A DNA stretch of 60,000 bases, taken from positions 14,262,001 through 14,322,000 of the forward strand of contig NC_087245.1 in NCBI RefSeq assembly GCF_037042905.1. The letters run 5' to 3'. The position numbers and the translations under genes were made by a program. Shown here piece by piece: positions 12,401-42,906 of the stretch (its first letter is position 1; every line of letters starts with the position of its first letter). Under the pieces are notes generated by a model. It saw nothing but the letters and a program-made list of their open reading frames with translations. It searched no databases and was not told the DNA's origin. Source of the DNA: Lytechinus pictus. Its lineage: Eukaryota.

Positions 12401-15400
12401 AAATCAAAATATGGTTTTGGAAATTTGGTTGCATGTTTTTTTGGGGAAAAAAAAGACTTCTGTCACAGGTTCGTGTCAAATTTTACAGCACATGTCTCCA
12501 GACAAAAACTGATTTTTTTTTTGGTCGGAGGTGTATTTTACGTTTTTCCCTTCTACATCACCAATATATATATATGTATTGGAGATCTTTTGCAAATATA
12601 AGTAATTGGTATTTTTTTTACATTTTGGTATGACTTCTAGCCCCTTTTTTATATTTTTCTATGCACATTGGTAAACCTTAGATTTAAACATGGATTAATT
12701 TTTCTACCCCTGGTGAAAATATTGGCATTTCTCTATTGGTACTACTACTGTTTGTTATTCATTTCACTCATGTAAACTTGTATATTTTCTATGTCTTTCT
12801 TTACTCTGTGTGGAAACTAAAGCATCACCCCATTTCTTCTTCTTTAATCCAGCATGTATTTGTTCATACAGCGCAATTATAGGAGATACCTAATAAAGAA
12901 GGTTTATTCTCTATCAATAGCTCGCTGTCTGTGTGTAGACAATCTTACACTTCAAATCCACAAAAGCAGTCGTGTTTTATAAACCAAGTATTCCCCCAAT
13001 TTTTCTTGCGATACTGCTCCTACTCCTACTACAGACACCCTACATATCTGATTTAAAAGCTTATGTATTCTTTGCCTTTATCCTTCTATTATTTTCCTTC
13101 ATCCTTCCCCTGTTATATCCAAGCCGTCTTTTCGTCTTTCCTTGGTCATCTTTCCTCTCCTGTTTTCTTTGGTATTTTCTTTGTAGCTGCATCCTTTGCA
13201 CGCATGTCAACCAATATCTTCTCATTTGTGTTGTGCCAAGTCAGTATAGTCTAGTACTCTGTTTCGTATGAACTCTGAAAGAAACTTGTCCCTCTCCTTG
13301 ACTTTGCTCAAATCTTTTTTTCTATCGTAGTCTACTAGTTTGCATAGATAAGAGAACAATTGTCACTTATTTGGGTAACTGGAAGTATTATATTCTATAG
13401 CAAAATTACCCTTTATCTTGCTGCTTCAGATGGAGGACAGTGGATGATTTTCAAGATAGGTGTTGGTATCGGAAGCACATTTTACATTGCCTTCCCCAGC
13501 TCAATCCGAGTTCACTGAAATTATTCAATCACAATATTGATAGTTTCAATACTGTCCAAGGACCTGCCTCTTTTAAGTTTGATGCTGTGTTAATATAGCA
13601 ATTAGCCATACACCAGCACCAAATTTTCAACAACGAAATTAAAAAAATCACTGTATTATTTCACTCATTACCCCAAATTTCCAGCTGGAATCAACTGGTC
13701 CATGTTTAAAGCCTATGAGAATTCAGAGTTCAATAGTCAAGTTTTGATAAAATCGGATTCATTATTGTATGTGGTTTTCAGTAGCATGCTTGTGTAGTTG
13801 TATGAATTTTCCTTTCACATTGATTAAGGCAATCAGGATTAGAGGAAGGTATGGTTATCATTGTATTATACTTTTTGCTCTGCAGAGATTTTAAGTCTAG
13901 CCCAAGTCTTACGGATAGAAATGGGACATTTATTGTCTAATTAGATTCAGGGGCATGTACCACAAATTGTCATCTTTGATATCCCCCAGAAATGCGTGCT
14001 ATGAACTGTTTTTATTGGATATCAATAGTGACGGTCTTGTCACTCTTGTGAAACCCACCTCATATAAGCAGTATGATTTATCTCATTATTAGTAGTTATA
14101 AAATTGAATATTTCCCTTTGACCTAACATTCATACTTTTGACGTAAAATATGGTCCTTATGAATCAATTACATGCTACCCATATTTATCACAATCACACC
14201 TTTGCAGTGGATATCTTTTTTTTTTCAGAATTATTTTCAAAATAATAGCCCAGGTTCTCTTTGCACCTCTTGTGAAAGTATGCTTGTGTCTCTCTTTATT
14301 TATTGTGTATGTATCGGAAGGATACCAAGTCTTAATAGACGGACAAACCAAATGGTGTCCTCTCAATTTTCTTTTTTTTTATTCCTAATCTATTTAAGAT
14401 CCAAGTGTATTTTGTCTGCTTGAAATAGTTATTATAGGAGAGTAATTCTATAATAATTATGCTTGTTTCTAGGAAATCATGGCAGGGATCTCTTCGACTA
14501 AAAGGTAAAATGGGCAAGTCACCGGGAAGCAAGAAGGAGAGTAAGATACCCCGTCCTAGACGACGAGCATCAGGGAGGGGTCTTGAGGATGGAGAGTTAA
14601 AGAAACCAGGCTCTAAAGGTCATGGAAAGGTAAAATTATACATATGTGTTGAAGAGACATTGTATCATTGTTGATATTTTAATCGGCCAAAGTAGAATTA
14701 AAAAGGAATAATTTTGCCCCCTCTGCCCACTGCCACCCATACTTCACCTACTCCCATCCTCCAAACCCTCATCTTTTCCTCCTTCTCCTCTACTTCCTTG
14801 TCCCCTCTCCTTTATATTAAAGATAACTTTCTGATAATTAAGTGCTGTATATCAAAATGGAATGTATTTATTGTTATGCATTCTCTCCTGGGGCCCGTTG
14901 CAGAAAGAGTTGCGTTTAAACGTAAGTCAAAAAATCAATCGCAAGTCCCAAATGCGCGCTGTTGATTGGTTGAAAATCAAGTTGCGCATGATTTTTAGAT
15001 TTGCGATTGATTGCAACTCTTTCTGCTACGGACCCCTGGATTGTAAATATCTATGTTTTGACAAGATTTTCAATTTCTTTCTTATTCTCAGCCTGTAAAT
15101 GCTTCACTGTATCAACCTGGTAAGTTCATACTTTTATGTCTGTACTGAAATTTTATTGGAATATGTTAACAATATTGTTATTACAGTCATTCACAATCAA
15201 GTTACTTATATGTGTTCAATCTGTTGGCTAACAAACTTGGGTGATCCTAGTACAAAACCAATAGAAGTAAGAAAGTTCAGTTGTTAACACATTTACTGTT
15301 TCTTGTATAGTATCATGATATGATACTTGATTAGTATTTGCCAGAAATGAAGTTATATTTCTCAGGATGAATCCTACAGTAGGATGTGACTTTTTGATAC

Positions 15401-18400
15401 TTTGATTTAATACATGCCTTTATTATATCATATAACATAATTGGATGTAGTTCATTGATTCATCAGATTTGTAAAATAGTTCAATATCATGACTAGACTG
15501 ATACATGTATATACACGTTTAATAGTTCATTTGATTCTGATCCAGCTTTTGAAAGATGGTTTTATACATGTAGTTGCCTGCCCACAAATCCTAGTGCAGC
15601 CCCTCTAACATTTGAAACTAAGAACAGTATGATTTTCTACAAAATAAAATCCAATTTATCGATTTCTTTGCATTTTCAACAGCTGCTCCTGCCTTCACCC
15701 TACCCTTGATAAACCAATCCAGTCACTTGGGTACCACCGCCACACTTTCCTGCCAGGTGTGTGGCCGGCCACGCCCCATCGTCACCTGGAGGGACCCACA
15801 GGGTGACATCATTACCCCTTCTACCAGGACCAACGTCTGGGAGAGGGACGATGGTATGGTGTTTCTAGAGATCCGGGGGAGCTGTAAGACGGATAACGGT
15901 GTCTATACGTGTACAGCGAGTAACGATGCAGGTTCTACGGAATGTAAAGCTCTTCTCAGGATAATCTGTGAGTTCTAATTGCATAGGTTTCAAAACAAAA
16001 GTGATAGGTTTCCATCTTTGAAGTTACATAATCATTTTGATTTGTTTTTATAGTAAGAGGTATAAGTTGGTTAGAAGGTACAGATTAATGATTTCTCTAC
16101 ATTAAAAGAAGTGTCATGTAAACTTGTGGTGGAGTGAGCCAAGGATATTATACCTTAATCAAAGTCTGACCCACGTTCATTAGGATTCTCCTGCCCCTGT
16201 CTTTTCCTGCAGGAAAGGTATTGTCAAAGTCATCATTATCTTTGTACAAATTTTAGGACCCAAATGGAAAAGAGAGAGTAAAAGTCATGAAGTTTTTAGT
16301 CTATGTCTTGATTTAAGAGGAATAGAAATGTACATGTATATCACATATACCAAAAGTTTTGTTTCTTATGTTGTTTCATCTGTTTTGTGCATGAATACTT
16401 TTACAAATATCTTTTTTCCTCACAAACCTTACAGATCGTCCAGGTCCACCAGGCATTCCCATTATATGTGAAAGGAGACCACACTCTGTGATATTGCAAT
16501 GGGAACCCTCACATAACACAGGCAATGCAGAAAGTGTTACATACAACGTTGATTATGCACAAATCAGTGAGTATCAATACTGATAAATAATGTCTTAGAT
16601 TTTGTAATTCTCACAAGTATATTATAGAGATAGGGACATTAGGACATTAGTCAAGTAGAAGTGTCGTGGTGTAGCAGCTTTGACTCCCGCCTTGTAATCA
16701 GAGGGTTGTGTGTTCGAATCCCACCATGGCCTAGCGCCCTTTGGCAAGGCATCAATCCACACTTTGCCACTCTCACCCAGGTGCTAATTGGGTACCAATA
16801 TGAAAAAAAACGTCAGAGTGGTTGGTTTGGCAAGTGTGCACCTAACAGACTGCCAGAAAAACTTTGAATCCAGTGACCAGTTAATAATATTGTGAAGAAC
16901 TTTGAGCAATCATAGACTGGAATCGCGCTACATGAAAGCCAATTGTTTGGGGGTTTTTTGGGAGGGGGAGGAGAAAGCAATTATAACGTTTAATGAATAT
17001 AAGTACTTATTTTTGTAAAAGATCGTCTCTGGTAGTTTATGGGAATTCAAGAATCTAGGGCCTGTTTCACAAAGAGTTACAACTATGGCAACTCGTATAG
17101 AAACCTTGATTGTGATTGGCTGCTGGGCCATGTGACGATTTTATTTACCTTTGTTTTCATATTTTCATCCTTCCTTAACTCAGTGTTAATCATTTTTATT
17201 CTCATATTGCATCTTCTTTCTATCTCCCTCTATTTTCAAACTTTCGATCTGTATTACTATTCCATCTTTCATTCTTACTTCTGACCTTTCCTCCTTCTCT
17301 CTGTCTCTCTGTTTCCTTTCCTTATCTTTCCCTTTTATATTTTTCATGGTACATGTAGTTTCACCTCTCCCTCACTTCACCCATCTTACGAAGCCTGACA
17401 AGTTTCACTCAAGGATTTTTTTTTATTTCTTCATTCTTCAGCCCACAGTACCGTTCACTGGCAGACCTCCTGTGCTAACATCGCTCACACTACTCATAAA
17501 GTGGACGGGCTGTCAGCAGGGGGATCTTACAAGTTTAGGATCACGGCTCAGAATGATGTTGGATGCAGTGATAAGGGCGAGACCACACCTGCCATCACTC
17601 TCCCAGATGATACTGGTAAGGATGATTCATTCTCTGCAGTTGACAAGGATTTCAATCTTTAAAAACAAAAGCTCCTGTTGTAGAAAAATGAATATTTTTA
17701 TTGATAGTGTTGAGTACGTTCATACTATTTAGGAAATATATTGAAATCAATAGATGCATTATAAATTATTTCATCTGTAATGCTTTGACAATCATGCAGT
17801 GACCTAAAACCGCTTAAATGTACAGGCTTAACATTTGTGTAAATATTCACATACATGCATACATACATTTCTGTTTAGAGTGAGTATGATTAACAACAAA
17901 ATAGAGTTAATTTTTTATCATTATAGTGATTTCAAAATATTACAACATACACAAATTTGTAGTTGCATTATAATAAACATTACCCAGTCATTTTGAGCAA
18001 TTTTTGTCTCACCTGCATAGCAGAGTGAGACTATAGGCGCCGCTTTTCCGACGGCGGCGGTGACGGCGTCAACACCAAATCTTAACCTGAGGTTAAGTTT
18101 TTGAAATGACAGCATAACTTAGAAAGTATATGGACCTAGTTCATGAAACTTGGCCATAAGGTTAATCAAGAATTACTGAACATCCTGCCTGAGTTTCATG
18201 TCACATGACCAAGGTCAAAGGTCATTTAGGGTCAATGAACTTAGACCATGTTGGGGGAATCAACATCAAAATCTTAACCTAAGGTTAAGTTTTTGAAATG
18301 TCATCATAACTTAGAAAATATATGGACCTAGTTCATGAAACTTATACATAAGGTTAATCAAGTATCACTGAACATCCTGCTTGAGTTTCACATCACATGA

Positions 18401-34980: not shown

Positions 34981-36032
34981 ACTATTAATGATATGAATAA
35001 GAACTTATAGGCTAGTAAAGAGGGATAATTATTAAAAGGATCTGTACGAAATAAGGTTTTTGCACTGTTATTTTTATTCTTGTAGTTCTTATACCAAGGA
35101 GATCCGCGATGAAGTTGAATGTATCACGTCAATCGATAATTTTTATTTTTTATAGTTGGTGAAATTGTGACTATATTATTTCACATAATAAAAATATGGC
35201 AGCTTGCATAGTAAAAAAAAATATTGTTTTTAAACAATTAACCCAAGAAGTGACTGTTATAGACTTCCCCTTCAAAGAAACCACACCCCAAAAATCAACT
35301 TTGAGGTGCCAATCGGGGAAAATATGGGTGAAAAACCTTTTCGGCCCTCCTCCCCTATTAGCTAAAGATGGATCCGCCCCTGAATATTCGAGTATGTACT
35401 TACTAAGATCCTTTATTGCTCTCAGTACAAGATAGGCTATTGACAGTAGGGCGATTACATAAGTGTCGTACGGAACATTTTGATAACAATTTATAGTCTC
35501 TTAGCCGAATGCTTGACCAATAAAACTTTCTTTTTTTGTCAATGATAAAGTTAAAGCGGGTAATGATGTGAAAACTGATAACCAACAAAGAATGTTTGGG
35601 TACGGGTGAATTAAAGATGAAAATGTTGTGTGTCGTACAAGACTCAGCAATGTCCCATACGACACGCAATATTTCGACCTATAATTCACCCATACTCTAA
35701 CATATTTTTGTTGGTTGTCATAACTTTACATAATTACCCAGTAGTACTTTAATATGACCAGAAAACAAATTGAAGTTCCTCGTTTGTTTGGACACCAGGT
35801 TGAAAAGTGTTGTGAAAATGGAAGATTTTTCTAGCGTGGAATCGTCCAGTAAGACATAATGCCTTCGGATCTTAGTGGAGCTAAGCTCCATGCTATATCT
35901 GTCGAGTTGCTTCCTTGTCTCATAAATTCTGCTGCAGACTGCATTCAAAATAATGAATAAATACTAAATGAAAAAATACAAATGATCAATCAATATGGGG
36001 GTCAGTAGTTATGGGTTAGACCTCATACCAAT

Positions 36033-36330
36033 TTGACCTTTGACCTACTTAACCTTTGACCTTTGACCCATGACCTTTGACCGCATGACCTTTGACCCCA
36101 ACTTCCGGTCACTGTTGACCCCGTGACCCCACCTTCCGGTCAATCATGACCTTTGACCTTTGGGTACGCGGTAAACAGGAAATTGGATAATGGAGCGCGG
36201 GAAGCGATTTTAATTGGATAATGGAGCGCGGGACGCGATTTTAATTGGATAATGACTCCGCGTGGGGACGCCATCTTAATTGGATAATGAAGCGCAGGAC
36301 GCGATTTTAATTGGATAATGACTCCGCGTG
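36033..36330. promoter_or_regulatory. Subterminal motif array: TGACCTTTGACC repeats, CTTCCGG x2, five 31-35-bp AATTGGATAATG units (mirrored at ~40609-40906)
   Basis: Read directly; motifs match nuclear-receptor half sites/DR1, ETS core and CCAAT box; function inferred. Confidence 0.5.
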
Positions 36331-37418
36331 TCGACCTTATCGCACGATGCAGCGACGTTGCACGGGCATATGATACGATGCACAAAACAGACGTATGATT
36401 TATACATGCAGTTTCCTATCGAAAAAAGTTGTCTTTCTCCGCCTACCGGCGGATATGTCAAGTGCCGCGCATGACGTCACCTGCTACGTAAGCACCGTGA
36501 TGTCATCCCAGGGAATTACCCTTTACCCGGTATTGCACCACCGTGGCGCAATCGTCACGTATAGGATACGATGCACAAAATAGACGTATGATTTCTATAC
36601 AGTTAAAAAGTGAAAAGTTATCTTTCTCCGCCTACCAGCGGATATGTCAAGTGCCTCGCGGTTCACGAATCGATCGCCCCATGCACGGCCAACGCGCGTC
36701 ATTGAACTTGGGATATCCTATTCAAGGTGAAAGCCGGCTCTCTCTGTCTCTTATTACAACAATTATTGGTAATCCAACATGTGATTATAATCATGACATC
36801 TCAAGCTCTACTCATTCCAGACTTTCCCCCATCAAAACTCTCTGACTTTTCCATACCGTTTTGTACATACTTTTCATTTAACTCACATGACCTGCACGGC
36901 TCTCTGACCCGCAAAAGTATGTATATTGAAACCCGCAGACGACTCCTTTCAATCAACTTCATTCATCCGCAGTACAGATGGTGATAACATGAAACACTAT
37001 ACAGTCAAGGATGATTCTTTATTATTACTATCATTTATTCTATTCCATTTCAATGTAGATAGGTTCAATTAGTGTATAAACAGCAGATTTTGATACAAAG
37101 GTAAAAATAATGTAAGATATGTTCTCAAATTACGTTGTCACAACAAAATAATTAACTGTTCATTGTTAATATTAAAGTGAAGTTCTCGTTTTTTTCTTTT
37201 CCTTCGCTTAACTTATTGGATTGTAACACATGTCTATGGATGGCATTCAGAAAATATGAACACAATGAAGTTCAAACTGTCATTTATGCCCGCATTTATG
37301 TTGACGGCGTTTTCTTGGATTATTCGACAAGCTGATGTTTGTGCCTTTAGTTGTAGGTTCCATCTTCACCCTCCGTTTCTTCTCCACCATCATCATTATC
37401 GTCATCGTCACCTTGATA

Positions 37419-37997
37419 CTAGAATAAACCATCGAATTGTGAACCATGCCTGGCTAACACTCTCTGTACGGCTTTCCGGAATTCCATGCCATTCTCTAAT
37501 CTTTCCGTGAGATCGGACACGATTTCACGATTGATGTCAGCGTCTTCGAGGTACACGTTCTGCTGCAAGAACTGAGAGTACAGATCGAAAAAGATGCGTT
37601 TGACTGCCCACATTAGTTTCACGTGAGCCTTTGCTTTAGCGTCTTCTTCTTCCATTCCTTCTGAGATGTATTTCTGATATTTTTCGTCTCTCAAGTCCTT
37701 GGTGGCCGTCATGGCTTGCTCTAACCATCCTCGATAAGCGAGGTTGTCTTCAGTTTCTTCCATGTTTGCTGTCATTGACGATTCGTGTCCATCGCTTTCT
37801 GATACGCTCGTTTCGGAATCACCGTTGGATTCTTCAACATTTTGCATTTGAGAGGATGGGTCGGATTCTTCATCTTCACTCGTTTCTTCTCCAGTATCAT
37901 GCTCAATTTGTTCATGCCTCTGCATGTTATATTTCCTACTAAAAGTTTTATCGCATCGTGAACAAGCGTAACGGTTGGACATATCCAATATATTCAT
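37419..37997 (-). CDS. C2H2 zinc-finger + acidic linker + helical-domain protein (192 aa), left-arm copy
   Basis: ATG MNILDMSNRYA-C-x2-C-x12-H-x4-H (CSRCDKTFSRKYNMQRHEQIEH); intronless; identical to right-arm copy. Confidence 0.75.
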   Translation of the reverse strand: MNILDMSNRYACSRCDKTFSRKYNMQRHEQIEHDTGEETSEDEESDPSSQMQNVEESNGDSETSVSESDGHESSMTANMEETEDNLAYRGWLEQAMTATKDLRDEKYQKYISEGMEEEDAKAKAHVKLMWAVKRIFFDLYSQFLQQNVYLEDADINREIVSDLTERLENGMEFRKAVQRVLARHGSQFDGLF

Positions 37998-38090
37998 GCT
38001 GACTCGATGATTATTTGTTGGGAAATGAAGAAAATTAACGTTCAAACTTGTAATTATACGTAATCATGAAACGCGCGCGAAGGTACTTTG

Positions 38091-38410
38091 ATTCTTACGG
38101 ATTTTTACGCATTCTTACGGATTCTTACTCATTCTTACTCATTCTTACGGATGTTTACTCATTCTTACTCATTCTTACGGATTCTTACTCATTCTTACGG
38201 ATGTTTACTCATTCTTACTCATTCTTACGGATTCTTACTCATTCTTACGGATTCTTACGGATTCTTACTCATTCTTACGGATGTTTACGGATTCTTACGG
38301 ATGTTTACGGATTCTTACGGATGTTTACGGATTCTTACGGATTTTTACGGATTCTTACGGATGTTTACGGATTCTTACGGATGTTTACGGATTCTTACGG
38401 ATTTTTACGG
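38091..38410 (+). repeat. 10-bp satellite x32 (ATTCTTACGG / ATTCTTACTC / ATGTTTACGG variants)
   Basis: Exact 10-bp phase in the listing. Confidence 0.97.
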
Positions 38411-38428
38411 ATTAATCAATGCTTTCAT

Positions 38429-38561
38429 ATAATCTCAAGGAAAATATGTTCATCCACGCTGGAATGACCCATGCAGCATGGGTCATTCCAAATAATCTCA
38501 AGGAAAATATGTTCATCCACGCTAGAATGACCCATGCTGCATGGGTCATTCCAACGTGGAT
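38429..38561. repeat. Central 63-bp direct repeat x2, each ending in a 31-nt hairpin
   Basis: ataatctcaaggaaaatatgttcatccacgct(g/a)gaatgacccatgc(A/T)gcatgggtcattcca starting at 38429 and 38492. Confidence 0.95.
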
Positions 38562-38842
38562 CCGTAAGGATCCGTAAACATCCGTAAACATCCGTAAACA
38601 TCCGTAAGAATCCGTAAACATCCGTAAGAATCCGTAAAAAATCCGTAAGAATCCGTAAGAATGAGTAAGAATCCGTAAGAATCCGTAAGAATGAGTAAGA
38701 ATCCGTAAGAATGAGTAAGAATGAGTAAACATCCGTAAGAATGAGTAAGAATCCGTAAGAATGAGTAAGAATGAGTAAACATCCGTAAGAATGAGTAAGA
38801 ATGAGTAAGAATCCGTAAGAATGCGTAAAAATCCGTAAGAAT
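38562..38842 (-). repeat. 10-bp satellite, inverted copy (~28 units)
   Basis: ccgtaagaat / gagtaagaat / ccgtaaacat units. Confidence 0.97.
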
Positions 38843-38935
38843 CAAAGTACCTTCGCGCGCGTTTCATGATTACGTATAATTACAAGTTTGAACGTTAATT
38901 TTCTTCATTTCCCAACAAATAATCATCGAGTCAGC

Positions 38936-39514
38936 ATGAATATATTGGATATGTCCAACCGTTACGCTTGTTCACGATGCGATAAAACTTTTAGTAGGAA
39001 ATATAACATGCAGAGGCATGAACAAATTGAGCATGATACTGGAGAAGAAACGAGTGAAGATGAAGAATCCGACCCATCCTCTCAAATGCAAAATGTTGAA
39101 GAATCCAACGGTGATTCCGAAACGAGCGTATCAGAAAGCGATGGACACGAATCGTCAATGACAGCAAACATGGAAGAAACTGAAGACAACCTCGCTTATC
39201 GAGGATGGTTAGAGCAAGCCATGACGGCCACCAAGGACTTGAGAGACGAAAAATATCAGAAATACATCTCAGAAGGAATGGAAGAAGAAGACGCTAAAGC
39301 AAAGGCTCACGTGAAACTAATGTGGGCAGTCAAACGCATCTTTTTCGATCTGTACTCTCAGTTCTTGCAGCAGAACGTGTACCTCGAAGACGCTGACATC
39401 AATCGTGAAATCGTGTCCGATCTCACGGAAAGATTAGAGAATGGCATGGAATTCCGGAAAGCCGTACAGAGAGTGTTAGCCAGGCATGGTTCACAATTCG
39501 ATGGTTTATTCTAG
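38936..39514 (+). CDS. C2H2 zinc-finger + acidic linker + helical-domain protein (192 aa), right-arm copy
   Basis: First ATG at 38936 (the ORF track starts at an upstream TTG); candidate AATAAA at 39894. Confidence 0.75.
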   Translation: MNILDMSNRYACSRCDKTFSRKYNMQRHEQIEHDTGEETSEDEESDPSSQMQNVEESNGDSETSVSESDGHESSMTANMEETEDNLAYRGWLEQAMTATKDLRDEKYQKYISEGMEEEDAKAKAHVKLMWAVKRIFFDLYSQFLQQNVYLEDADINREIVSDLTERLENGMEFRKAVQRVLARHGSQFDGLF

Positions 39515-41260
39515 TATCAAGGTGACGATGACGATAATGATGATGGTGGAGAAGAAACGGAGGGTGAAGATGGAACCTACAACTAAAGGCACAAACATCA
39601 GCTTGTCGAATAATCCAAGAAAACGCCGTCAACATAAATGCGGGCATAAATGACAGTTTGAACTTCATTGTGTTCATATTTTCTGAATGCCATCCATAGA
39701 CATGTGTTACAATCCAATAAGTTAAGCGAAGGAAAAGAAAAAAACGAGAACTTCACTTTAATATTAACAATGAACAGTTAATTATTTTGTTGTGACAACG
39801 TAATTTGAGAACATATCTTACATTATTTTTACCTTTGTATCAAAATCTGCTGTTTATACACTAATTGAACCTATCTACATTGAAATGGAATAGAATAAAT
39901 GATAGTAATAATAAAGAATCATCCTTGACTGTATAGTGTTTCATGTTATCACCATCTGTACTGCGGATGAATGAAGTTGATTGAAAGGAGTCGTCTACGG
40001 GTTTCAATATACATGTACATACTTTTGCGGGTCAGAGAGCCGTGCAGGTCATGTGAGTTAAATGAAAAGTATGTACAAAACGGTATGGAAAAGTCAGAGA
40101 GTTTTGATGGGGGAAAGTCTGGAATGAGTAGAGCTTGAGATGTCATGATTATAATCACATGTTGGATTACCAATAATTGTTGTAATAAGAGACAGAGAGA
40201 GCCGGCTTTCACCTTGAATAGGATATCCCAAGTTCAATGACGCGCGTTGGCCGTGCATGGGGCGATCGATTCGTGAACCGCGAGGCACTTGACATATCCG
40301 CTGGTAGGCGGAGAAAGATAACTTTTCACTTTTTAACTGTATAGAAATCATACGTCTATTTTGTGCATCGTATCCTATACGTGACGATTGCGCCACGGTG
40401 GTGCAATACCGGGTAAAGGGTAATTCCCTGGGATGACATCACGGTGCTTACGTAGCAGGTGACGTCATGCGCGGCACTTGACATATCCGCCGGTAGGCGG
40501 AGAAAGACAACTTTTTTCGATAGGAAACTGCATGTATAAATCATACGTCTGTTTTGTGCATCGTATCATATGCCCGTGCAACGTCGCTGCATCGTGCGAT
40601 AAGGTCGACACGCGGAGTCATTATCCAATTAAAATCGCGTCCTGCGCTTCATTATCCAATTAAGATGGCGTCCCCACGCGGAGTCATTATCCAATTAAAA
40701 TCGCGTCCCGCGCTCCATTATCCAATTAAAATCGCTTCCCGCGCTCCATTATCCAATTTCCTGTTTACCGCGTACCCAAAGGTCAAAGGTCATGATTGAC
40801 CGGAAGGTGGGGTCACGGGGTCAACAGTGACCGGAAGTTGGGGTCAAAGGTCATGCGGTCAAAGGTCATGGGTCAAAGGTCAAAGGTTAAGTAGGTCAAA
40901 GGTCAAATTGGTATGAGGTCTAACCCATAACTACTGGGGTCTTTCATTTTACGCCATTTTATCTTAATATTGAGTTATTTTGAACACTGCAGGGGTAGAC
41001 TTGTTAAATCCTGTGTCTTATTAGAAATGATACGACTCCTTTTCTGTCTAAAAATGGGTGGCACTTTTTCCCACTTTATACGATGTACAGTTTATAATAA
41101 AGAGGGATGAGATGAGTTTGATTGAATTGTACTAACAGACATCATTATAGAGAGATGAAATGGATATAAAATCGATCACGTTAATGGCTGCTTTAGTTGG
41201 GCAATTAAGGGCGTTACCAGGTTTTGTGCACCATCTAATACATATTACATAGAGATAATT

Positions 41261-41607
41261 TAATAATAATAATATTCCGCATTTATATAGCGCTTAACAC
41301 ATCGGAACGACGTCTCTAAGCGCGTTACAGATATATTATTACCCCGGTCATCGGATCCTTGCATGCCCGCATACAATGTATGCACCTTCTCCACTCCCTG
41401 GGGAGCATTCCAACAATAGTTCCAAGACTCAATTGCTAGGCATACTAGGCTTTCGCATCCTACCGGGTACCCATTTAACACATGGGTGGAGAGTGGCAAA
41501 TTGTGGATTGACGCCTTGCCGAAGGACGCTAGGCCATGGTGGGATTCGAACACACGACCCTCTGATTACAAGGCGAGAGTCAGAACCGCTACACCACAGC
41601 GCTTCCG
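41261..41607 (-). mobile_element. tRNA-derived SINE, near full length
   Basis: Minus-strand head gcgctgtggtgtagcggttctgactctcgccttgtaatcagagggtcgtgtgttcgaatccc; (TAT)n tail. Confidence 0.82.
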
Positions 41608-41846
41608 CTAATTTCCGATAAGGATTTTTGTTATCGTACAGTGTCTACAAGAATTATTTGTACACTACATACAGCGATTCAAAATGAGAAGATGAACTAT
41701 GTTGGAACCAAAAAATTCATAAGTTGTCCATCATGAAGTATAATGAATTATATATCATATGAAAGAGGGAAGTTTAGCAATTGTTTTGCACCTAGTTGAA
41801 AATTGTGATCGGTCACGCATGAACGATTATGAATTATGAAATGCAA

Positions 41847-42207
41847 TAATGCATATTTTCAGACCTTGCTGTGATTATTGAAGCGTAGCGTGCAACGCTT
41901 CATTGATCATGATTTCTTACTTTTTTATCAGAGAGATAAGATGATATGCTTTCATTTGACATACAATTCTTAATATTTCAGTCGGCTGTACGGATTTCGT
42001 TAACGATTTAAACAAATTGATGTCTGACTGCTGTTGCCTCATTGACTTTTGTCAAAATGACTAAAACAGATCTAAATGATCTTAATTTTATATGAAATGG
42101 AAGCATGTCATCTCATCTCTCAGAAAAAAAGAAAGAAAATAAGTCATGATCATTGAAGCATTACGACTTACGCTTCAATGATAATAAAATATGAAAATAT
42201 GCATTAT
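41847..42207. mobile_element. Internal part of a palindromic MITE
   Basis: ataatgcatattttca...attgaagcgta...gcttca.tgatcatga mirrored at 42140-42207. Confidence 0.55.
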
Positions 42208-42498
42208 CACACTTCAATATAAATAGAGTGTCCCGTTTTTAGGTCTTAATATTTTTTTTCCGCTCGCGCTTTACGCTTGCATTGTTTATCTATATACCTA
42301 TATCCTGTTCATGATCGCAAAAAGTGATTAGAATGTCAATTTTTAGGTCGGAATGTTACAAATTTTCAGCCTTATTCATTGTTGACATATCGTCTTGATG
42401 GCTAACTGCAAATAGCCCTTAACAGGTCCCTTTTCGATCAGGCCAGAATGTATATAGAAATTTCTGCTCGCGCTCACAGTAATTGTATCGTTACATCT

Positions 42499-42906
42499 TA
42501 AGACCACCGCACACCTTACGACTGTTCGCGATCCGATTTTGGAACAAATCGCATTTTGCTCATTTTCTGAAAATGTGAATGGAACATATAATTTTATTTG
42601 AGGTTAAAATTAATTGAAAGAATACTAATATAACCATTTTGAAAAATTGCAAGCCTTTATTTTGGAGTAAAGGCCAAATTAGTTTCAAATCGTAGCCAAT
42701 CGTACGACTGCTATGACGTCATTACGACTAGATATTAATTTCGCTTTTATTCTCAGAAGGATGATAGCATAGTCAAAGGTATTCGTTCGATGATTTAAAA
42801 CATTACACAGTAAGATATTCCAAGTCTCATTATTAGCATCAAATTCTACTACATTTTATTCTGAAATCGGGTCGCAGACCAATCGTAAGGTGTGCGGTCG
42901 CCTTTA
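42499..42906. mobile_element. MITE (Harbinger-like, TAA/TTA flanks)
   Basis: ccgcacaccttacga...gcgatccgattt / aaatcgggtcgc...tcgtaaggtgtgcgg. Confidence 0.7.

Follow-up and report, generated by a model that had tools for sequence, protein, structure and literature searches.

The window considered here, the whole 60,000-nucleotide stretch of Lytechinus pictus DNA that was analysed, contains a palindrome at positions 36004-40935 that is close to perfect and has GGGGTC on either side as an exact 6-bp duplication. The features of this element are given below, with the evidence for each in brackets.

35998..36003, no strand: left target-site duplication GGGGTC, the same as 40936-40941 (read directly)
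36004..38296, plus strand: left palindrome arm, 100% complementary to 38637-40935 except for one 6-bp indel
36004..36330, plus strand: left terminal repeat, beginning AGTAGT and homologous to a Polinton terminal inverted repeat (TIR) (BLAST to the C17 Polinton ends, TRF)
37419..37997, minus strand: zinc-finger gene, left-arm copy, 192 aa owing to a premature stop (ORF list; Pfam zf-C2H2)
38090..38413, plus strand: 10-bp satellite in the left orientation, ~32 units, the unit being about GATTCTTACG and the core TTACGGAT (TRF, repeat search)
38423..38548, plus strand: two tandem 63-bp units on the symmetry axis (repeat search; DNA fold)
38560..38843, plus strand: 10-bp satellite in the inverted orientation, 28.3 units of ATCCGTAAGA (TRF)
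38637..40935, minus strand: right palindrome arm (repeat search)
38936..39514, plus strand: right-arm copy of the zinc-finger gene, which shares the premature stop (ORF list, copy comparison)
40010..40017, no strand: TACATGTA in the right arm where the left arm has TA (36922-36923), the sole indel between the arms (read directly)
40609..40935, minus strand: right terminal repeat, ending ACTACT (repeat search, direct reading, BLAST)
40936..40941, no strand: right target-site duplication GGGGTC (read directly)

The repeat search returned two inverted-repeat blocks of 100% complementarity, 36003-36926 against 40013-40936 (924 nt) and 36919-38296 against 38637-40014 (1378 nt), and the arms are therefore ~2.29 kb each. 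Inverted repeat makes up ~93% of the 4.9-kb element, and no chance model explains a perfect inverted repeat of 2.3 kb. The 6-bp indel accounts for the two blocks being out of register, and the longer version in the right arm, TACATGTA, looks like a scar left by the later excision of another transposon. The single substitution between the arms was read directly at 36936/39997, and one site differs across the 1,723-bp non-satellite stretch (36368-38090 against its mirror). Mirror symmetry enters the central array for ~20 satellite units, ending at 38296, which leaves 340 nt between the arms. The initial annotation had described 36004-38090 and 38843-40935 as reverse complements differing only by a 6-bp indel and one substitution, with symmetry through the first 19 satellite units, and these measurements agree with it. 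Its reading of the tips as AGTAGT...ACTACT and of the GGGGTC duplication was confirmed directly, and its claim that the element integrated as a unit, with a 6-bp duplication, is supported. It was also right about a non-mirrored centre, but not about the length, put at about 370 bp.

The left terminal repeat is itself composed of repeats, with TRF reporting nine copies of TTTGACC (36032-36097), 1.9 copies of a 31-bp unit and 4.4 copies of a 31/66-bp unit. Beyond the terminal repeat, each arm consists of ~1 kb of non-coding DNA and a conserved 216-aa gene which reads outward from the centre. The central array, which surrounds a short hairpin, totals ~60 copies of the TTACGGAT-type 10-bp satellite. 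Both 63-bp axis units contain the short perfect hairpin GAATGACCCATGC-N-GCATGGGTCATTC, and positions 38414-38560 fold as DNA with -43.4 kcal/mol (z = -9.7). The same hairpin core lies no more than ~60 bp from the midpoint in 7 of 15 copies. Apart from the two zinc-finger copies, the open reading frames of at least 60 aa either derive from the satellite or are short and unconserved; as previously claimed of the Polinton genes, the ORF list holds no pPolB, integrase, ATPase, protease or capsid gene, and it holds no transposase either.

In the protein encoded in each arm, a single C2H2 finger (PF00096, residues 10-33, E=1.7e-5; 25.5 bits, cut-off 25.2) is accompanied by an acidic linker, and the C-terminal domain is helical. 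Its full length in other copies is 216 aa, and the open reading frame is intact in 21 of 23 arms. C12, C15, H28 and H33 show little or no variation among 10 homologues, and homologues at 48-72% identity retain the C-terminal domain; no fold or family match was found for the protein beyond the single finger. One cluster of homologues contains RefSeq-style proteins, which we take from the style of their accessions to belong to another echinoid. Between deep subfamilies pN/pS is 0.32-0.50 (for example, 11 synonymous differences at 123 sites against 16 non-synonymous at 525 sites), and the gene is under moderate purifying selection. Individual copies decay: the 1-5 differences among the reading frames of closely related copies are all non-synonymous, and the gene in the window is truncated by a premature stop that is found in both arms. 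RNA coverage is very low, at a depth of ~0.3-2.5 with ~6% of each run read, and the reads over the gene are mostly antisense if the libraries are of the first-mate-antisense type. A neighbouring SINE on the minus strand points to this usual library type.

The ends of the element are shared with a larger one. At C17:12792967-12809161 of this genome lies a 16.2-kb element with the same terminus, a 295-bp TIR and a 6-bp duplication, ATCATG. It encodes pPolB (PF03175, E=1e-17 and 1e-15), an rve integrase (PF00665, E=1e-10) with a chromodomain (PF00385), and a Pox_A32-like packaging ATPase (E=2.6e-8; 34.1 bits, cut-off 22.8). Among its ORFs of 189-300 aa, Pfam recognised neither protease nor capsid, the profiles used including none for Polinton capsids. 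This element, to which we refer as the helper, is of a Polinton lineage that occupies only three loci, with integrase matches 99-100% identical. The ends of the window copy match those of the C17 Polinton at 82-84% over 327-358 columns (BLAST), the differences being mostly repeat-number indels. The homology extends for ~295-400 bp and includes the exact tip; over ~330 bp the two have in common the tip AGTAGT, the iterons of TTTGACC and the 31-bp repeats next to them. The element was thus correctly recognised as having Polinton/Maverick ends, and an autonomous element that shares its terminus, of the sort that the initial annotation proposed to look for, exists.

The remainder of the arm is absent from the helper. 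With blastn against the C17 Polinton the terminal region alone was shared, and arm positions ~365-2087, including the zinc-finger gene, had no match. When the C17 Polinton and the right 9.7 kb of the C6 Polinton were searched with the zinc-finger protein of the arm (tblastn), no match was better than E=1.2, and none of the 150 best zinc-finger hits was at a pPolB/integrase locus. Because the rest of the arm is missing from the Polinton, the element is not a deletion derivative but a satellite that has a gene of its own. The initial annotation had offered two origins, copy-back from one end of a Polinton or internal deletion of a Polinton with long, gene-bearing TIRs. The latter fails, as the helper repeat is only ~295 bp and the gene is not in the helper. 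As to copy-back, the process finds support in one subfamily (see below), whereas the single accidental molecule gives way to a lineage of many copies.

The terminus pattern occurs genome-wide at 92+81 = 173 matches, against 11+8 = 19 for a reversed control. There are other palindromic copies with different duplications, which the initial annotation had proposed to look for: dozens were found, and 13 of the 14 independent copies examined in this family (family 1) have perfect 6-bp duplications, all different, the fourteenth (L042) matching at 5 of 6 positions. That the copies are segmental duplicates of one locus is excluded by their different flanks. The duplication is 6 bp long in every copy examined in this and a second family, and the palindromic design is common to all subfamilies. 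Divergence between the arms of a copy is 0-0.26% in 10 of 11 copies, compared with a median of 2.8% and a maximum of 6.4% between copies, the closest of which are 0.06-0.25% apart. L048 and L050 are at least 2.9-3.2% from every other sampled copy, yet their own arms are 0.06-0.26% apart. The two arms evolve in concert. An exception is L040, the arms of which are 5.5% apart with different tip variants; its 6-bp duplication is nonetheless perfect, and a copy can therefore integrate without having identical arms, nor must the arms always be homogenised.

Helper-derived DNA amounts to 0.3-1.4 kb per arm across copies. In the window copy it is the TIR only, which is alike at both helper ends. In L049, whose duplication is TGAAAT, both arms contain Polinton positions 14782-15900 at 98.6-98.8%, and in the helper these positions lie outside the TIR, at the right end only. 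In L042 helper right-end-specific sequence is partly present in both arms. For the L049 subfamily, an origin of both arms from one end of the parent is supported by this right-end-specific DNA.

A second family (L052-L061) has a zinc-finger gene only ~75% identical in DNA to that of family 1 and an unrelated tip, AGAGAATAATG. It begins AGAGAA, that is, with 5'-AG tips, and its arms are palindromic over 2,174 bp with 5 mismatches. Its central satellite shares the ATCCGTAA core with family 1, and a perfect 6-bp duplication, TAGGTC, is present. Judging from these sequences, the palindromic design persists across two diverged families.

Several known systems share parts of this design. Fold-back transposons include Drosophila FB, Galileo and Tetris and the sea-urchin TU elements; these groups are associated with transposases of the Mutator or P type and with 7-9-bp duplications. 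Like the element, they are non-autonomous and have very long inverted arms with tandem sub-repeats and only a small spacer between them, but the ends and 6-bp duplication here are of Polinton type and each arm has a conserved protein gene. Membership of the Mutator/P fold-back group is rejected, as the duplications are 6 bp rather than 7-9 bp and the ends belong to a pPolB/integrase element. Incomplete adenovirus particles hold inverted-duplication DNA, and linear viruses produce snap-back defective genomes. These have both halves derived from one end (here seen in L049) and arms that are identical by construction. However, they consist of parental sequence and arise repeatedly, whereas the present lineage is heritable and has a gene of its own; a defective genome of parental sequence only is rejected, with arm positions ~365-2087 unmatched in the helper.

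Polintons are described as 13-25 kb long, with TIRs of 100-1,500 bp and target duplications of 5-8 bp (PMC10748475), those of sea urchins including Polinton-1_SP (PMC3014272), and as encoding by definition pPolB and an integrase (PMC5499653). The window copy is like them in its 5'-AG...CT-3' tips, TIRs, 6-bp duplication and helper-homologous ends, but unlike them it is 4.9 kb long, almost entirely inverted repeat, lacks Polinton genes and has a gene missing from the helper. It is not an autonomous Polinton, since it encodes neither pPolB nor integrase. Terminal reiteration serves slide-back priming in known protein-primed systems, and by analogy we infer that the AGTAGT reiteration may have this role. 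Transpovirons and virophages of giant viruses exploit the replication or packaging of a helper and have genes of their own, as described in PMC5499653. Like them, the element is small, linear in design and helper-dependent, with terminal inverted repeats and its own conserved gene; it differs in that its helper is an integrated animal Polinton, and in being chromosomal, with target duplications and a fully palindromic body. No published description of such palindromic Polinton satellites was found in the literature.

Taken as a whole, the element probably belongs to a lineage of palindromic, non-autonomous satellites of Polinton/Maverick and was inserted recently. The helper integrase, and probably also its protein-primed polymerase, would act in trans, recognising the ends that the element has in common with the helper and moving or copying it. 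A linear or single-stranded replication intermediate would fold back at the centre, and one arm would then serve as the template for the other, which would be made anew by copy-back synthesis or corrected by mismatch repair in a snap-back hairpin. The arms would in this way stay identical as lineages diverge, and any newly captured DNA would come to be mirrored in both. Regeneration of one arm from the other during helper-driven replication is inferred from comparison of the copies. Since the inner ~340 bp, including ~20 satellite units, are unmirrored in the window copy, which is young, a turn-around exactly at the hairpin in the last round is not seen. The zinc-finger protein would be an element-specific DNA-binding factor, its most likely target being either the terminal iterons or the 10-bp satellite of the element, in which each unit spans one helical turn; this binding is the most speculative step, and the DNA target is a guess.

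Ordinary gene conversion between the inverted repeats in the chromosome could alternatively account for the concerted arms. The element would then be a conventional non-autonomous Polinton derivative with long TIRs, moved as double-stranded DNA by the integrase alone, and its arms would be alike only through such conversion or because every copy sampled descends recently from a palindromic master, without fold-back replication. Arm differences are no smaller than the distances between the closest copies, and therefore many copies are simply young; L040 integrates normally with unequal arms, and the non-mirrored 340-bp centre fits conversion tracts that stop where satellite homology breaks. Against this, lineages 3-6% apart and the second family all hold arms at least 99.7% identical, so homogenisation must recur along every lineage, and the 1.1-kb one-end block in both arms of L049 demands conversion across a 1.1-kb heterology. 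We consider this derivative unlikely. That a single accidental copy-back genome was made once from one Polinton end would fit a perfect palindrome with Polinton ends and the one-end sequence of L049, but is very improbable given that dozens of copies, spread over several subfamilies, share the design and differ in their target duplications, that the helper supplies the terminal ~330 bp only, and that the arm has a gene not present in the helper.

Target duplications of 6 bp are not unique to Polintons and also occur in IS3EU and Dada types, so that a fold-back transposon of another superfamily, of one of these types or of the Mutator/P type, might merely resemble Polinton ends. This has an extremely low probability, as ~295-400 bp of end, down to the tip itself, is held in common with a pPolB/rve/A32 ATPase element and no transposase is encoded. 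Long-read assemblers are able to create palindromes, and no piece running from flank to flank was found in four runs (~6% of each read). However, the arms are separated by a discrete scar and a substitution, and a fold-back assembly artefact is excluded, its likelihood being negligible, because of the exact target duplication at the outer ends and 13 further copies of the same design elsewhere, each with its own duplication.

On the reading as a lineage of palindromic satellites, a further and more tentative possibility is that animal Polintons have long-lived satellites that maintain a heritable half-genome, made up of a helper-type end, one zinc-finger gene and a turn-around formed by the satellite. 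Whenever the protein-primed polymerase of the helper copied such an element, copy-back at the central hairpin or satellite would restore the second arm, and the zinc-finger protein, by binding the 10-bp satellite, would recruit the helper or divert it. To our knowledge, a single-stranded snap-back replication intermediate of Polintons has never been directly observed. If this proposal is true, the identical arms would be a sequence fossil of such an intermediate, and the same strategy would have emerged or lasted in other animal genomes.

The insertion at 36004-40935 belongs to a heritable, gene-bearing palindromic satellite lineage of a Polinton. Polintons are regarded as viruses that have become integrated and that use a protein-primed polymerase for their own copying. 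To our knowledge their replication cycle has never been seen in animals, and we know of hardly any description of non-autonomous relatives. No palindromic or gene-bearing non-autonomous Polinton was found in searches of the full-text literature, although Repbase may hold such elements.

An inverted-repeat search of 35000-42000 returned two blocks with 100% complementarity, 36003-36926 with 40013-40936 and 36919-38296 with 38637-40014, and the extents of these blocks give arms of ~2.29 kb around an unmirrored centre of 340 nt. The sole indel between the arms is 6 bp, seen as the offset of the two blocks, with TA at 36922-36923 in the left arm and TACATGTA at 40010-40017 in the right. This difference suggests that a TA-targeting transposon inserted here at a later time and was then excised. 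A single substitution separates the arms at 36936/39997, and mirroring of the central satellite is restricted to the outer ~20 units on both sides. The palindrome had been described accurately in the initial annotation, as the repeat blocks, the ends and the GGGGTC duplication all confirm on the sequence.

Features of the window copy
From 36004 (AGTAGT) and up to 40935 (ACTACT): element ends, read from the sequence
35998-36003 and 40936-40941: 6-bp duplication GGGGTC, read from the sequence
Near each end: TTTGACC (9 copies), a 31-bp unit (1.9 copies) and a 31/66-bp unit (4.4 copies), TRF
37419-37997, minus strand: 192-aa ORF of the left arm, reading outward from the centre
38090-38413, with an inverted copy at 38560-38843: central 10-bp TTACGGAT satellite, TRF
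38429-38554: two 63-bp units, TRF
38936-39514, plus strand: 192-aa ORF of the right arm, reading outward from the centre

Each arm also carries a tandem pair of ~190-bp units with a TGACGTCA motif (36368-36659 and its mirror). In another copy (L031) this pair makes a 236-aa open frame; the frame is broken in the window copy, and is therefore probably not a gene.

The 812-Mb assembly was searched for further copies. The element's initial 397 bp match at 110 places genome-wide. Allowing up to one mismatch, the tip pattern AGTAGTTANGGNNNAGACCT was found at 92+81 sites (reversed control, 11+8), mostly as plus/minus pairs spaced 2.5-7 kb apart. Twelve loci and then eight more were retrieved, from which 14 independent full copies were delimited, the window copy included; a further 17 listed copies lie outside this examined set, as do long terminus pairs at C5:48689700-48727774 and C8:29707589-29756382. 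Left out of the 14 were L032 (a near-twin of L031), L041 (an end of the helper Polinton described below) and the L045-L047 cluster of nested copies. Perfect 6-bp duplications flank 13 of the 14, no two alike (GGGGTC, GTCGTG, AAATTG, ATTTAT, TGGCGT, AACACT, ACACAG, TATATA, GGTATG, GTTATA, AACATA, TGAAAT and AGCGAC), and the remaining copy, L042, has an imperfect one (ATCATC/ATCATA). The zinc-finger module is present in both arms of 12 of the 14; L034 has lost one arm by deletion and L033 consists of short arms only. The palindromic copies with differing duplications that the initial annotation had called for therefore exist, and its picture of a one-off snap-back molecule gives way to a heritable multi-copy lineage, on the strength of the tip counts and the distinct duplications. 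Four sequencing runs searched over the window copy yielded no flank-to-flank piece and no empty-site joint, but flank cover was near zero and the result therefore carries no information on polymorphism.

Several loci have more complicated structures. The 26-kb terminus pair on C6 (L045-L047) was considered as an autonomous element and rejected, being several nested or adjacent palindromic copies. A 47-kb cluster at G000:C17:8134560-8181441 (L011-L013, L017, L020-L030) holds ~20 complete or partial units, many 4.1 kb apart, in which the element tip is fused to internal arm positions, with one junction found five times; a flank with an ATACGC duplication is also repeated. The arrangement suggests that the element integrated into itself and was afterwards amplified in tandem.

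An autonomous element with the same terminus, looked for in the range of 15-25 kb, is present at C17:12792967-12809161, where the termini lie 16.2 kb apart. We refer to it as the helper. It has terminal inverted repeats (TIRs) of 295 bp plus an ATCATG duplication, and its features agree with the Polinton descriptions in published accounts (PMC3014272, PMC10748475, PMC5499653).

Coding frames of the helper
pPolB: 894-aa and 286-aa frames (PF03175, E=1.1e-17 and 1.3e-15)
rve integrase: 380 aa (E=1.2e-10)
Chromodomain with the integrase: weak and sub-threshold (22.8 bits, cut-off 25.1)
Pox_A32-type ATPase: 247 aa (E=2.6e-8)
Frames without assignment: several, of 189-300 aa

The helper ends and the first ~330 bp of the window copy share one layout, comprising the tip, TTTGACC iterons, 31-bp repeats and AATTGGATAATG repeats, and differ chiefly in repeat number. 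By BLAST, identity to the helper ends is 82-84% for the window copy and reaches 97% at the right end of another copy, L049. With its pPolB, integrase, ATPase and homologous ends, this cognate element bears out the earlier assignment of the termini to a Polinton. Genome searches with the helper polymerase and integrase placed the helper lineage at three loci only (C17, C6 and C21), where the integrase matches are 99-100% identical. At least 10 other Polinton loci have a polymerase and integrase 40-52% identical to those of the helper lineage, several with long open frames (e.g. C14:847211-854819, C8:34649708-34679562, C5:36883881-36895208, C3:55087386-55100006). Inside the helper, 3.8 kb is duplicated in tandem (99.8% identity), and a second left tip there adjoins an internal position in the integrase region; L049 has a similar partial triplication at its right end.

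Helper-type ends, Polinton-type duplications and a lack of mobility genes are established for the element. Past approximately position 330, nothing in the helper matches the arm of the window copy at the nucleotide level (BLAST), and the zinc-finger protein gives a best E of 1.2 against the helper and the right 9.7 kb of the C6 copy (tblastn). At least 150 sites in the genome match the zinc-finger gene, most of them arranged as divergent inverted pairs with 1-2 kb between partners, and among the best 150 none lies at a pPolB/integrase locus. An internal-deletion derivative of a Polinton with long, gene-bearing TIRs, as had been proposed for this element, is at odds with TIRs as short as those of the helper and with a helper that does not have the gene. 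Judged from these comparisons, the element is a separate lineage bearing the helper's ends, and neither a deletion derivative nor a helper fragment, because both the arm beyond ~330 and the zinc-finger gene are missing from the helper.

The element also has its own conserved gene, arms that evolve in concert and a mirrored capture of helper DNA. Arms were compared over a 1.1-1.76-kb non-satellite segment in 23 arms, dropping those shorter than 1,100 bp and with them L042. Within a copy the arms differ by 0-0.26% in 10 of 11 copies; between copies the median difference is 2.8% and the largest 6.4%; L048 and L050 are at least 2.9-3.2% from all other sampled copies, yet their own arms are 0.06-0.26% apart. 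The exception, L040 (G000:C17:29772646-29778828), has arms 5.5% apart that belong to different subfamilies and carry two tip variants, within a perfect GTTATA duplication, and is on these grounds a hybrid element; one of its two zinc-finger copies contains a stop codon. In the most telling copy, L049, helper positions 14782-15900 are present in both arms at 98.6-98.8% identity. That stretch lies outside the TIR, at the right end of the helper only, and its presence in both arms shows that helper DNA was recently acquired and mirrored.

How the arms are kept alike could be explained in two ways. The helper integrase and protein-primed polymerase may work in trans on the common ends, whose AGTAGT reiteration would be suited to slide-back priming, which occurs in other protein-primed systems. 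A single-stranded or nascent form could then fold back at the centre, after which one arm would serve as the template for copying or repairing its partner. A single-stranded Polinton intermediate is reportedly part of the racket model of Kapitonov and Jurka from 2006, under which a fully palindromic element would snap back into a nearly complete hairpin. The leading alternative, also compatible with these data, is homogenisation of the arms by gene conversion within the chromosome. L031 (G000:C5:41084010-41089619) and L032 (41109311-41114921), which lie 25 kb from each other, served as a test case for such in-situ conversion and carry no signal, because there are 0 substitutions between them; they differ by one 10-bp satellite unit, and the left tip of L032 is truncated by ~9-12 bp. 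Their right flank is common and their left flank is not, and they are a duplication or rearrangement with its breakpoint at the element end.

Close to the midpoint, within ~60 bp, 7/15 copies have a perfect short hairpin, GAATGACCCATGC-N-GCATGGGTCATTC, carried by either a single 63-bp unit or two of them; 4/15 have lost part of the hairpin and 4/15 lack it. The predicted fold of the window copy's centre as single-stranded DNA has an energy of -43 kcal/mol (z=-9.7). The only Rfam match in 35000-42500, to mir-8489 on the hairpin, was sub-threshold (31.8 bits; gathering score 99) and was dismissed as chance.

Each 192-aa ORF of the window copy encodes one C2H2 finger (PF00096, E=1.7e-5). The ORF is 216 aa long in other copies, the window copy having a premature stop at the same position in both arms; 21 of 23 arms keep the ORF intact. 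Comparisons across deep subfamilies give a pN/pS of 0.32-0.50, and between close copies all of the 1-5 ORF differences are non-synonymous. Across 14 database homologues (48-94% identity) a helical C-terminal domain is strongly conserved. The closest named proteins are from Lytechinus pictus, and one homologue cluster contains RefSeq-style predicted proteins which, from their accession style, we take to be from another echinoid. An AlphaFold2 model built from 10 homologues has a mean pLDDT of 63 and is confident only in the helical part, 78-192. Foldseek against PDB and BFVD gave no match at E<=0.001 and the ESM Atlas generic C2H2 clusters only, so that neither provided a fold or family match outside the finger. 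More speculatively, the protein may bind the element's satellite, since protein and satellite are co-conserved in both palindromic families (see below), a 10-bp period corresponds to a single helical turn and the satellite array adjoins the start of the gene.

In two raw-read RNA runs under the same species label, with ~6% of each run read, depth over the element was ~0.3-2.5; the strand bias is a mirror image in the two arms, numbers being small and reads from other copies indistinguishable. A neighbouring tRNA-derived SINE (41290-41605, minus strand), with an A- and B-box-like tRNA head in the reverse complement, reaches an RNA depth of ~2,300, nearly all on one strand; ARAGORN reported no tRNA in 41000-42000, SINE included. 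Cover of this minus-strand SINE comes almost exclusively from plus-strand first mates, which suggests that first mates run antisense to their RNA. If so, reads over the zinc-finger gene are mostly antisense, running inward from the element ends.

A database protein (P0002) 71% identical to the zinc-finger protein led to a second, diverged family, its gene also occurring in inverted pairs in the genome (L052-L061, including G000:C6:6116576-6121768, C2:46628210-46634276 and C5 from 26310277). The C6 copy, L052, is a palindrome with 2,174-bp arms, 5 mismatches and a 185-bp spacer. The central satellite of this family has a 21-bp period and the same ATCCGTAA core as the first family, the subterminal repeats are 55 bp, and the tip, beginning AGAGAATAATG, is unrelated to that of the first family. 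Flanks differ among four copies, and the C2 copy has a perfect 6-bp duplication, TAGGTC. About 1 kb of the outer arm, with a diverged tip, also lies 3 kb upstream of pPolB in a second Polinton lineage at C17:10.52 Mb (73-87% identity), which suggests that these two form a second helper-satellite pair.

The first family outnumbers its helper, with ~80 termini pairs against three helper loci. Arms kept identical over millions of years of divergence offer a concrete handle on mechanism, since the pair is a built-in recorder of whether copying passes through a fold-back intermediate, a question on which the mirroring of freshly captured helper DNA also bears. Perfect palindromes of 5 kb are especially prone to assembly error and to genome instability, and annotation at the level of the family is advisable. 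The gene and satellite together make a testable protein-DNA recognition system, and the lineage provides an animal case of a parasite on a virus-like transposon, with a conserved gene of its own.
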